Position numbers and translations under genes: made by a program
IMG/VR virus record: IMGVR_UViG_3300047323_000304
Location: 1 to 64,000 of that record
Reading direction: 5' to 3' (one strand)
Source: a virus
Length of the DNA: 64,000 nt
Shown: positions 36,835 through 39,892 of the stretch, in pieces
Position numbering within the stretch: position 1 is the stretch's first letter
Layout: the number at the start of each line of letters is the position of its first letter
Notes under the pieces: model-generated
Told to the model about the DNA's origin: nothing
Seen by the model: only the letters and a program-made list of their open reading frames with translations
Databases searched by the model: none

Positions 36835-37092
36835 ATGGAAAATAAAAAAATGACTATATTTTATCGTTTAAGAAATTTAGAAATTAGTGATACTTGTACA
36901 GGAGTACAAAGTTTTAGATATTTTGGAGAAAATATTGAAGATTATGAAATGATATATGGACGTTTAGTTCTAGATTATGACGTTTTTATTTTAAGAAATA
37001 CACAAGATTTTTATCTAGAAAAAAATGAAAATGGAGAAGTACAATTAAAAATGAAACTTGAGTTTCAAGAATCCTTAAAAAAATATTTATAA
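36835..37092 (+). CDS. Small tail-associated protein
   Basis: AAGGAG SD; directly follows Tal. Confidence 0.55.
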   Translation: MENKKMTIFYRLRNLEISDTCTGVQSFRYFGENIEDYEMIYGRLVLDYDVFILRNTQDFYLEKNENGEVQLKMKLEFQESLKKYL

Positions 37093-37111
37093 ATAAATTA
37101 AAAATAATATA

Positions 37112-37154
37112 TTGACAACTTTCTTTATTGGTGTTATTATTTAAATATACCAAG
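37112..37154 (+). promoter_or_regulatory. sigmaA promoter with putative operator
   Basis: TTGACA-17-TATTAT; AATATACCAAG in the same register as at 17091. Confidence 0.7.
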
Positions 37155-37234
37155 TAACAACAAAAAGTGGTATAATATTCTAAAAGAATATAAAATTTAA
37201 AATAAATATTAATTATGAGAGGAAAGTGTTAAAT

Positions 37235-38020
37235 ATGAAAAAGTCAATTAAAAAATTAATAACCTTGATTATTGCAACTACTACAATTTTAGGTACATCA
37301 GTTACAGCAAACGCAGAATGGAAACAAGACACTAATGGTTGGTGGAATACAGAAGGAAATTCTTATTCGACTGGTTGGAGAAATATTGACAACAAATGGT
37401 ATTATTTCGATAATAATGGGTATATGAAAACTGGTTGGTATCAAGATGCTGATGGAAAATACTATTATCTACAAACAGATGGAAGTATGGCTACCAATAT
37501 AACTACACCAGATGGATATAAAGTTGACGATAAAGGAGTTTGGGTGAAAACAACTAGTAATGCTATTAGTACAACAAATACAACTCAAAATCAAGTTGCT
37601 ACTAATGCAACAAATAGCACAAATAATCAAACTACATCATCTACTAGTAATGCAAGTTCAAGTTCTTCATCAAGTAGTAGTTCGTCATCAAGTAATTCAA
37701 ATAATAGTTCTAATAAAAATTATGTTTCTATATTTTATTTAAAAAATGATAATAATAAAATTACTGATGCAGGAACAGGTAAACAAACATTAGGATATTT
37801 TGGGCAAGAAAACTTAATAGAAACTGAGAAACAATATGGATTATTATATATAAATGCTAATGACTACGGAAAAACCGCGAAAGATTTTGCTAGAGAAGTA
37901 TTTGATAATTACGAAATAATCAATGATAATGGAATAGCAAAATTAGTAAAGAAATCAATACCCACTACATCCAATGCAACTACTCAAACAACTACATCCT
38001 CAGCAGTAACAGCATTATAG
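37235..38020 (+). CDS. Secreted cell-wall/choline-binding repeat protein
   Basis: Signal peptide ending ANA-EWK; GW..IDNKWYYFDNNGYMKTGW repeats; Ser/Thr/Asn-rich linker. Confidence 0.85.
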   Translation: MKKSIKKLITLIIATTTILGTSVTANAEWKQDTNGWWNTEGNSYSTGWRNIDNKWYYFDNNGYMKTGWYQDADGKYYYLQTDGSMATNITTPDGYKVDDKGVWVKTTSNAISTTNTTQNQVATNATNSTNNQTTSSTSNASSSSSSSSSSSSSNSNNSSNKNYVSIFYLKNDNNKITDAGTGKQTLGYFGQENLIETEKQYGLLYINANDYGKTAKDFAREVFDNYEIINDNGIAKLVKKSIPTTSNATTQTTTSSAVTAL

Positions 38021-38050
38021 ATAATTAGTAAAAAAATAACAAAAAACATA

Positions 38051-38167
38051 TTGACATTAATAAACATTAGACATATAATAGTAATTGTAAAGAAGTTATA
38101 TAATAAAATTCTACAAAGCATTTTATTTTAGATAAGACATTGATTGGTACTCAGTGTCTTATTTTTA
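38051..38167 (+). ncRNA. Putative antitoxin sRNA (about 38086-38167) with its promoter
   Basis: Consensus TTGACA-17-TATAAT; terminator TAAGACATTGA/TCAGTGTCTTA plus T tract; no ORF; 19/21 direct repeat of the toxin start region. Confidence 0.65.
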
Positions 38168-38303
38168 TGTCCAAAATAAAGGACTTTCTAATTATATTAC
38201 TTACCATCTCACGTAATTGGTACTTACGCTTTTAAAATATATAATTATAGTCATCCTTATATTAATTATCTTATCATCTGTTCATTAAAATGTATTAATG
38301 GGC

Positions 38304-38402
38304 TTAAACAAAGTGTAATACTACAGTTAAAACAATATTAATTATAGCTATAACAATAGTTTCATCTAAATGATTTTTCAAGAAATCCACAAAGCTTTTT
38401 AT
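38304..38402 (-). CDS. 32-aa hydrophobic peptide, putative type I toxin (ATA start; not in ORF track)
   Basis: GGAGG SD 8 nt before ATA; (M)KSFVDFLKNHLDETIVIAIINIVLTVVLHFV; promoter TTGTAT-17-TATAAT at 38477-38449. Confidence 0.6.
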   Translation of the reverse strand: MKSFVDFLKNHLDETIVIAIINIVLTVVLHFV

Positions 38403-38629
38403 TTTAATCGCCTCCCTTCCCAATGGGATGTTTCAAGATGGCAATTAAATTATATCACTTATTACTAGAATATACAATTTAATACAAAAAACTATTAATA
38501 ACTTAGTGTAATATTTACTAGGTTGTTTTATTATGTCAAAAATTACTATACTATCAAGAATGTATAAACAAAATAAAAAGAATATATTAAAATAAAAACA
38601 CAATTTTAAAAGAAAGTTGGTGAGTAAAT

Positions 38630-38842
38630 TTGCCAAGTATATTAACAACAAAACATCAAGAAGCACAAGATGCTATTGCTAAAATGAACCAAAAATATAT
38701 AGATTCAAATATACAACTTAATAAAACAAAAGATGAAGGATTCAAAACATTAGAGAATAAATTAAAAGATGAAGCAGATTATCAGAAAAATACATTATTG
38801 AATGCTTATAAAGATATGAATGATTTACCCCCTGATGTATAG
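38630..38842 (+). CDS. Small hypothetical protein
   Basis: TTG start with a GGTGA-type SD; 70 aa helical. Confidence 0.4.
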   Translation: MPSILTTKHQEAQDAIAKMNQKYIDSNIQLNKTKDEGFKTLENKLKDEADYQKNTLLNAYKDMNDLPPDV

Positions 38843-38881
38843 TAAATAAAGTATAAATAATGAAAGGAGTTGATTGATTAA

Positions 38882-39892
38882 ATGGCAAATACAAGTATAT
38901 TTCAGATTGATAATATGGATGTTGATTTAAAAACATATGTAAAGCTTAGATGTAAATCATGTTTGGGGGATTCAGTAATATTCAAATTTTTAGTATACAA
39001 TGAATCAAGTCCAGTAAATTTATCTGATTATAAAATAGAATTTCGTGCAAGATTACCAAAATCAGGACAAGTATATTCTGAAACAGATAATATAACAATG
39101 AATGGAAATGAATTAACTGTAACCTGTGATAATGTTCTTACATCTGAAATAGGAGAATGTATAATTACATTGCGTTTGGTTGATATAATTACATATAAAC
39201 AAAAATCAAATTATATTATTATATTAAAGGTAATGTCTACAATAGATGCTGATGAAGAAATACAAACGAGTAGTACACTTAGTGCACTTTCTTCACTTGA
39301 TTATGCAATAGACAGATATTTTGAATTAAAGGTTGATTTATTAGACCAAATAACAATAGGAAATTTATTGCTAAATAATTTAATATCAAATATAGCCACA
39401 GGTAGCACATTAAATACAAGTTTAATAACACAAAATACAAATGCATCTTTAAATATATCTACATTAATAACCCAAAACAATCAAGCAACAAATAATATAT
39501 CAACATTAACAACTAAAAATAACCAAGCTACGAATAATGTTTCAGTATTAACAACTAAAAATAATGAAGCAATAACTAATACAAATAATTTAAATAACTC
39601 GATTAATATAGGGACTTCTTTAAATTCAAGTCTACATACTGAAAATATAATAGGAACAAAACTATTAGTAGATTTAAATAATGCTAATTCATTAATAAAT
39701 AAAAAAATAGATGACCACATTAACGATAATAATAGGCATTTAAGTATTGGAGAAAGAGAGTCATGGAATATGTATGCTACTCAAATAAATGATATAGCAA
39801 AATTAATTGATATTTTAATGGGTACTACTACAATTGTCACTGAAAATGGAGATAATATTATAACAGAAACAGGTGATATTTTAATCCTATAA
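38882..39892 (+). CDS. BppU-like baseplate upper protein with 14-aa repeats
   Basis: GDSVIFKFLVYNESSPVNLSDYKIEFRARLP; NISTLxTxNNQATN tandem repeats; TENGDNIITETG tail. Confidence 0.75.
   Translation: MANTSIFQIDNMDVDLKTYVKLRCKSCLGDSVIFKFLVYNESSPVNLSDYKIEFRARLPKSGQVYSETDNITMNGNELTVTCDNVLTSEIGECIITLRLVDIITYKQKSNYIIILKVMSTIDADEEIQTSSTLSALSSLDYAIDRYFELKVDLLDQITIGNLLLNNLISNIATGSTLNTSLITQNTNASLNISTLITQNNQATNNISTLTTKNNQATNNVSVLTTKNNEAITNTNNLNNSINIGTSLNSSLHTENIIGTKLLVDLNNANSLINKKIDDHINDNNRHLSIGERESWNMYATQINDIAKLIDILMGTTTIVTENGDNIITETGDILIL

Follow-up and report, generated by a model that had tools for sequence, protein, structure and literature searches.

A candidate type I toxin-antitoxin-like module with par-style RNA architecture and a peptide unrelated to Fst in uncultured phage and metagenome contigs

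What is encoded in a gap of ~430 bases inside the tail module of an uncultured, AT-rich phage? The gap lies in a 64,000-nucleotide (nt) stretch of viral DNA, here called the window, which is the first 64 kb of the IMG/VR record IMGVR_UViG_3300047323_000304 (193.9 kb, 26% G+C). A prior reading of the letters without database searches (the sequence-only reading) had proposed that positions 38051-38477 hold an unannotated toxin-antitoxin (TA) locus of type I, arranged like the par/Fst system of Enterococcus and consisting of a small RNA (sRNA) able to pair with the mRNA of a 32-amino-acid (aa) toxin. From a computational comparison with related loci, we conclude that the module is quite probably type I TA-like, with the RNA architecture of Enterococcus par and an unrelated toxin peptide. 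It would thus represent a new family of putative toxins under par-like RNA control. Each feature named in the sequence-only reading was found at the position given there, and the elements of its par-like interpretation held up in the related loci.

Eleven related loci were recovered, all of them in uncultured phage or metagenome contigs, and together with the window they make up 12 loci in 7 sequence classes. One phage contig (G001) was reached via the Tal gene (Tal identity 78%) and contains the module twice, once in synteny with the window (81% identity) and once in a diverged form (68%, ATG start). A profile of three peptides searched against 1.84 billion proteins returned 3 unnamed, ATG-started metagenomic peptides (E = 1e-6 to 5e-6), and scanning metagenome contigs for the motif added ten loci before de-duplication. 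The set of 12 was reached after removal of duplicates and of two chance pattern matches, one in a GC-rich repetitive coding region (L013:1707-1750) and one in a GC-rich contig of a Treponema metagenome-assembled genome (L030:941-994). Searches of cultured phages and plasmids (blastn of the module, tblastn of a peptide) gave no match, and nothing was returned by a search for related loci with the downstream 336-aa gene, by an over-specific DNA pattern in viral contigs or by a first pattern scan of genome contigs. Common to the 12 loci are the sRNA promoter, a covarying terminator, a convergent TGnTATAAT element, an mRNA 5' end of GCCAUC, the sequence GGAGGCGAU and a short peptide, and the whole arrangement recurs down to ~65% identity. 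This conservation, together with the covariation described below, argues against chance.

The sRNA promoter, TTGACA-17-TATAAT (38051-38079, + strand), matches the consensus at 12/12 positions and was the top-scoring site of the region in a promoter scan; a near-consensus promoter, with a TTGACA-type -35 and a TATAAT-like -10, stands at the same place in homologous loci. The predicted antitoxin sRNA (38086-38168, +) is ~83 nt long, with its ends placed from the positions of promoter and terminator. Its A/U-rich 5' part is followed by a target-recognition segment and then by the terminator, and it contains no open reading frame (ORF) led by a Shine-Dalgarno (SD) sequence. This agrees with the ORF-less, terminator-ended + strand RNA of about 80 nt that had been proposed from the window alone. 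The terminator hairpin (38130-38164) has a 14-bp stem (z = -2.4 in the single-sequence fold), is common to both convergent transcripts and shows compensatory changes in its stem across an alignment and consensus fold of 10 sRNAs. A U tract follows the hairpin on the + strand only, the toxin strand continuing A-rich. No Rfam match to either RNA was found at E values up to 10 (37000-39500, both strands).

The convergent promoter of the toxin mRNA (38449-38477, - strand) was read from the sequence and recurs in the family. It has an extended -10, TGaTATAAT (38457-38449), separated by 17 nt from a -35-like TTGTAT that agrees with TTGACA at only 3/6 positions; the promoter was for this reason not listed by the consensus scan. 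The sequence-only reading had called both facing promoters consensus sigmaA sites, which holds for the + strand and overstates the - strand. Other family members also have TGnTATAAT, with a AAATTGTA motif upstream of it, although TGnTATAAT is present there partly by construction, since it formed part of the search pattern by which most members were found. The likely mRNA 5' end is G38442, and family mRNAs begin with GCCAUC. Within the predicted 5'-terminal sequence GCCAUCUU (38435-38442, -), GCCAU is invariant in the 12 loci and can pair either with the SD or with an element of the 3' untranslated region (UTR). The SD, GGGAGG (38411-38416, -), is itself part of the family-invariant GGAGGCGAU.

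Behind this invariant sequence an open frame of 32-42 codons occurs in 12/12 loci. In the window, the candidate toxin ORF (38304-38402, -) consists of an ATA (38402-38400) located 8 nt after GGAGG, 31 further codons and a TAA (38306-38304), and the open frame and its architecture are conserved in the 11 homologs. The start codon is ATG in 10/12 loci, 7-13 nt after GGAGG, and ATA is found only in the window and its closest relative (G001). In L016 (P0001), the closest ATG-bearing relative, the ATG occupies the exact position of the window and G001 ATA, with 8-nt spacing in both, which suggests that ATA marks the ancestral start position. The sequence layout proposed for the - strand, with a GGAGG SD, an ATA and 32 codons, is confirmed, its consensus promoter apart. 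Three other starts were considered and rejected: a TTG at 38423 (39-aa ORF), which precedes the SD and is replaced by ATT in G001; a GTG at 38390-38388, which follows the SD at a distance of 20 nt and corresponds to GTA in G001; and an ATT at 38408-38406, only 2 nt after GGAGG. Initiation at AUA reaches 1-2% of that at AUG in Escherichia coli (10.1101/063800) and Fst itself starts with GUG (PMC7472228), making a weak start on a toxin gene plausible; the window AUA probably directs low-level initiation.

The peptides are 32-42 aa in length (32 residues in the window), with a polar N-terminal half and a hydrophobic C-terminal half in which the best 15-aa hydropathy window averages 1.4-2.9 (Kyte-Doolittle). 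They have in common a Lys at position 2 and an invariant Asp in a D-[KNE]-x motif. No family match was obtained in Pfam, NCBIfam (both searched at E up to 10) or PADLOC, and PHROGs gave a marginal match only; profile and word searches found no sequence relatives among named proteins, and a word-index protein search with the stop-to-stop ORF found no homolog. Neither an Fst-type motif nor a charged tail is present in an alignment of 11 peptides, as had been noted for the window peptide, for which the absent tail was described as acidic.

Database entries of 45-60 aa (P0002, at L017:131-268, as well as P0005, P0007 and P0008) start at upstream ATGs in the 5' UTR and read the SD as protein. These entries are gene-caller over-extensions that hide peptides of 35-37 aa, P0002 being the one verified at the sequence level. 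Of the suggestion that the locus represents a new toxin family missed by gene callers, the novelty and the oversight are upheld by the lack of a family match, the lack of a called homolog of the window peptide and the over-extension of its relatives; the toxin role continues as a prediction.

The two RNAs are linked by a direct repeat. The sequence-only reading had reported 19/21 identity between 38110-38130 and 38386-38406, corresponding to 20/21 RNA pairs over the ATA with one G-U pair counted, and these coordinates and counts hold, with one A-A mismatch as the remaining position. The repeat extends to 21/24, such that copy 1 (38107-38130, +) forms the target-recognition segment of the sRNA and copy 2 (38383-38406, -) is the predicted sRNA-bound initiation region, which begins 4 nt ahead of the ATA and ends with codon 7. 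The energy of the sRNA-mRNA duplex was equaled by 1/300 dinucleotide shuffles for the window and by 2/300 and 4/300 for two homologs. Conservation of the repeat pair, which had been named as a check, is seen in 12/12 loci, where 11-24 nt abutting the sRNA terminator directly repeat the start-codon region of the same locus. In every locus the distance from the start of the terminator block to the repeat is ~31-36 nt, and ungapped matches range from 11/11 to 21/24; in L016 it is, by inspection, 20/23 with a one-base bulge (9/13 ungapped).

The sequence of the repeat differs between classes, toxin-strand examples being UAAAAUAAAA.GCUUUGU, CAUGAACUGUA, GCAUGAAACAUU, GCAUGAAAUUCUU and CAACAUGAAAC[U/A]. 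At 13 anchored positions, cognate sRNA/mRNA pairs have 11-12 matches (with L016 at its ungapped 9) and combinations between classes have 6-11; mean duplex energy is -18.0 kcal/mol for cognate pairs and -10.6 kcal/mol (standard deviation 4.0) for pairs of different classes. The G-to-A difference that distinguishes the ATG of L016 from the ATA of the window is present in both repeat copies, and sRNA pairing across the start is therefore maintained in the ATA lineage. This indirectly argues that the ATA-bearing mRNA may still need repressing and, together with the class-specific matches, suggests that sRNA targeting of the start codon is under selection. An analog of a second direct repeat is unsupported outside the window/G001 class, and a possible second short contact, AAGAAG/UUUCUU, occurs only in these two.

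The toxin mRNA has a conserved structure of its own. In the minimum-free-energy fold of the whole window mRNA, GCCAUCUU (38442-38435) pairs with GAGAUGGU (38210-38203), as the sequence-only reading had anticipated. The 3'-UTR element (38203-38211, -) reads UGAGAUGGU, or UAGGGUGGU in the copy2/L017 class, and its pairing with the 5' nonamer GCCAUCYYR is conserved, with 9/9 pairs in 10/12 loci, 10/10 in L020 and 8/9 in L019. Two positions of this helix change on both sides in the copy2/L017 class (U-A to C-G and C-G to U-A), and several further G-U/G-C or A-U/G-U exchanges separate the classes. RNAalifold analysis of the 12 mRNAs places the element in an internal loop of a three-tier 3'-UTR domain (38179-38258, -), which is made up of an outer AAGGA/UCCUU helix, a middle helix and an inner hairpin; the hairpin (38212-38228, -), directly upstream of the 5'-end-binding element, occurs in every locus, with A-U pairs replaced by G-C or U-A in a compensatory manner. 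Compensatory changes occur at 18/36 pairs of the whole mRNA model, mostly in the 3'-UTR domain. The possibility that a conserved TATAAT-containing block of the 3' UTR serves as a third promoter was rejected: the block makes more sense as a strand of a covarying helix, and its conservation does not extend to L016, L023, L025 or L028.

The same 5' end has an alternative partner, in that GCCAUCYY can pair with the SD GGGAGGC by 7 bp and a bulged A, both in the consensus fold and in folds of the nascent 5' region in 12/12 loci. As isolated duplexes, the 5'/3'-UTR pairing is ~3 kcal/mol stronger than the SD pairing. We infer that the 5' end may act as a switch, with the SD and the 5' end masked during transcription and the SD later released by the 3'-UTR decoy.

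Taken together, these features suggest the following course of events. The moderate extended -10 promoter would give rise to an mRNA of ~300 nt for a 32-aa peptide with a polar N-terminal half and a C-terminal membrane helix. On the nascent mRNA, the extreme 5' end would fold onto the ribosome-binding site and block translation, until the structured 3'-UTR domain offered a competing partner for it. The near-consensus convergent promoter would meanwhile supply an abundant sRNA, whose ~20 nt before the terminator would pair with the mRNA around the start and block initiation, the two RNAs being complementary also across the shared terminator hairpin. Should the supply of sRNA cease, for example in a cell that has lost the phage genome, translation of the longer-lived mRNA would follow, with membrane damage by the peptide as the outcome. 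Transcription, transcript ends, relative RNA stabilities, use of AUA, membrane toxicity and biological role are here all deduced from sequence. The most likely role, by analogy with prophage systems of Clostridioides difficile (PMC7699646), would be to penalize cells that lose the phage genome; abortive infection and exclusion are possible alternative roles. A fuller reading joins these elements, and we put it forward tentatively, as possible yet on the doubtful side: an unrecognized phage TA family in which the 5' octamer toggles between SD masking and docking on an SD-like 3'-UTR decoy, a par-style sRNA guards the start, and one lineage has had its dose lowered by a working AUG-to-AUA change, with the antitoxin changing in step.

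Par loci are defined by promoters in convergent orientation, a bidirectional terminator, direct repeats that cover the initiation region, and sequestration of the SD and the 5' end (PMC7472228). As in par (RNA I/Fst and RNA II of the E. faecalis plasmid pAD1; PMC7472228), convergent promoters here would produce a short sRNA and a longer toxin mRNA with a common terminator hairpin, and oppositely transcribed direct repeats make the sRNA complementary to the toxin initiation region. Intramolecular masking of the SD and the extreme 5' end is also found in both, resting here on predictions and covariation, and the two are further alike in repeats that differ between paralogs (antitoxin specificity), in location on mobile elements and in a non-AUG start. 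The module differs from par in having a single repeat instead of DRa plus DRb, in having a U tract only on the sRNA strand whereas the par terminator is bidirectional, in using one 5' element to mask both the SD and the 5' end in place of the 5'-SL and 5'-UH of par, and in having a structured 3' UTR of ~130 nt with a second conserved partner for the 5' end, which par lacks. The peptide is unrelated to Fst, with its transmembrane segment C-terminal, after a polar half with a conserved Asp. In contrast, the Fst signature (Fst/Ldr family) comprises an N-terminal transmembrane helix, PxxxG, a conserved Trp and a charged tail, and the window family lacks the PxxxG, the Trp and the charged tail. With the Fst signature absent and the par RNA features present or matched by an equivalent, apart from the second repeat and a U tract on the toxin strand, the module appears to work like par without being a member of the Fst family. 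It also contains the general combination by which type I TA loci are recognized, namely a gene for a hydrophobic peptide of <60 aa and an RNA that pairs with its mRNA, the complementarity being backed by covariation.

In hok/Sok of enterobacterial plasmids and aapA1/IsoA1 of Helicobacter pylori, translation is timed by pairing of the 5' end with a 3' element and by co-transcriptional masking of the SD, and activation of the mRNA by 3' processing has been experimentally demonstrated. Similar long-distance 5'/3' pairing and SD masking are predicted here. The antitoxins of those systems are antisense to the 5' region of the toxin gene, without a distant direct repeat, and the systems belong to Gram-negative hosts and have unrelated toxin families.

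Closer in setting are the systems of the C. difficile prophages phiCD630-1 and phiCD630-2 (PMC7699646, PMC6563280) and txpA/RatA and bsrG/SR4 of Bacillus subtilis (PMC3834814), which likewise combine a small membrane peptide with an RNA antitoxin on prophages of low-G+C Bacillota. Stabilization of mobile elements by prophage-borne type I TA systems is reported for C. difficile (PMC7699646), and for the C. difficile and B. subtilis systems as a group a role in element retention has been proposed or demonstrated. Their antitoxins overlap the toxin gene in cis, at its 5' or 3' end, without a direct repeat. Their toxins have a hydrophobic N-terminus and a Lys-rich or otherwise charged C-terminus (PMC6563280), and this arrangement, conserved in the C. 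difficile prophage toxins, is opposite to the one found here. Profile, word and family searches revealed no sequence similarity to these prophage type I systems.

In the window, the module is flanked on the left by a 264-aa gene with repeats of the cell-wall/choline-binding type (37226-38020, +) and on the right by a run of fiber-like genes from 38630 onward. A tail-associated protein encoded upstream has ~24% identity to proteins of cultured Bacillota phages, and the carrier is most likely an uncultured, 26% G+C Bacillota phage in which the module is a self-contained insert between tail genes. No second copy beyond the known one was found in the 194-kb record of the window with nhmmer and regular-expression searches. 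On the + strand (38020-38168), a terminator-like hairpin is absent between the end of the choline-binding-repeat gene and the sRNA promoter. Transcripts reading through from the tail operon would therefore run to the sRNA terminator and have the whole antitoxin sequence as their 3' end, which could tie antitoxin supply to late transcription.

Elsewhere, the neighbors vary. A choline-binding or cell-wall-binding-repeat gene (235-307 aa) directly adjoins the module in six loci (the window, L016:3373-4080, L021:1991-2743, L025:2423-3175, L028:1970-2890 and L005:566-1486), either on the sRNA side and co-directional with the sRNA or diverging from the toxin promoter, and L016 is syntenic with the window in that it has this gene and 84-, 70- and 345-aa genes in the same order. 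Antirepressor-type genes adjoin modules of the copy2 and L023 types: a Bro-N gene in L018 (L018:83-841) and an ANT/KilAC plus ORF6N/pRha gene in L024 (L024:545-1477). In one locus, on a 248-kb metagenome contig, a PIN_3-domain gene (L020:5963-6436, +; E = 4e-18) immediately adjoins the module and may be a second, protein-type toxin gene at the same spot. G001 and one 3.4-kb contig each hold two module copies. The second copy of G001 (L006:587-888) lies beside a 326-aa gene (L006:1277-2257), and two modules 2.8 kb apart on one contig (L025:460-909 and L025:3237-3426) have peptides and start-region repeats of one sequence class. Possession of its own promoters and variable placement fit a mobile accessory module.

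Several points weigh against a type I TA-like module. Expression, toxicity and rescue are predictions from sequence, and all members of the family are metagenomic. The ratio of nonsynonymous to synonymous substitution rates (dN/dS) of the peptide genes favors the module with values of 0.2-0.7, below 1, in most pairs, but it is a weak measure over ~32 codons and equals 1.1 in one pair. The window copy has no canonical start codon and may yield little or no peptide. The A-rich continuation of the toxin strand after the shared hairpin means that the mRNA may read through the whole sRNA gene, as in 3'-overlapping Bacillus systems. Some non-cognate duplexes are as low in energy as cognate ones (e.g. 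-21.4 kcal/mol), which is explained by a CAUGAA shared between classes, and fold predictions, forced-constraint folding included, are split on the favored partner of the 5' end.

The lack of a canonical start also bears on a different explanation, in which the family is real and the window copy is start-codon-dead after an ATG-to-ATA change, its sRNA being kept as a terminator of tail transcripts or for use against the toxin mRNAs of related co-infecting phages. The distribution of start codons favors it, with ATG in 10/12 loci and ATA confined to the window and its 81%-identical relative, and so do the 1-2% initiation at AUA in E. coli (10.1101/063800), the sRNA terminator as the sole terminator-like hairpin after the choline-binding-repeat gene on the + strand, and the second, ATG-bearing copy in G001. 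We nevertheless consider it rather unlikely. The ORF has remained open since the window and G001 split, with mostly hydrophobic-for-hydrophobic changes. Between these two, conservation is higher in the 5' UTR (88% identity) and the sRNA gene (89%) than in the coding sequence (79%). The promoter, the SD with its 8-nt spacing and the 5'/3' pairing have all been preserved, and the sRNA-side repeat has the matching base at the ATA, pairing across the start having been kept or restored.

It is less likely still that the gene specifies a small membrane protein serving the phage in some other way, for instance in lysis timing, superinfection exclusion or abortive infection, and that the antisense RNA times or limits its synthesis. 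Layered, tight control of the kind predicted here (a strong sRNA promoter opposed by a weaker one for the mRNA, plus masking of both the SD and the start codon) is typical of harmful products (PMC7472228), each unit is self-contained with its own promoters, and the paired copies in one phage and one 3.4-kb contig are paralogs with non-cross-matching sRNAs, as in type I TA families. Such a protein would, however, suit the position of the module among tail and lysis-proximal genes, and elsewhere beside antirepressor and choline-binding-repeat genes; the charged C-terminal tail that known Gram-positive type I toxins have in common (PMC6563280, PMC7472228) is also missing from the peptide, whose toxicity is a prediction. 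That the features are chance products of AT-rich intergenic DNA, with neither RNA functional, is highly improbable. Promoter-like sites are indeed frequent in the region (19 found against 12.9 +/- 3.5 in shuffles), the weaker ones being common in AT-rich DNA, as are short A/T-rich repeats. Yet chance would have to account for an arrangement that recurs in 12 loci to ~65% identity, for compensatory changes in the repeat, the 5'/3' helix, the 3'-UTR domain and the terminator, and for an ORF preserved with an ATG in 10 loci. A type I TA-like module with par-style RNAs and an unrelated peptide is the reading that we prefer.

Type I toxins are routinely overlooked by gene callers, and the family described here would add a new peptide architecture, with a polar N-terminus and a C-terminal helix, to the RNA-controlled toxins of Bacillota. 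It would also indicate that direct-repeat targeting in the style of par is not tied to the Fst toxin. The 7 sRNA/target variants form a natural series suited to the study of antitoxin specificity, and the competition of the SD and a 3'-UTR decoy for one 5' end, as well as the lineage with an AUA start, would pose testable questions about the dosage of harmful peptides. The module may furthermore be a further case of a self-contained accessory unit within the structural operons of large uncultured phages.

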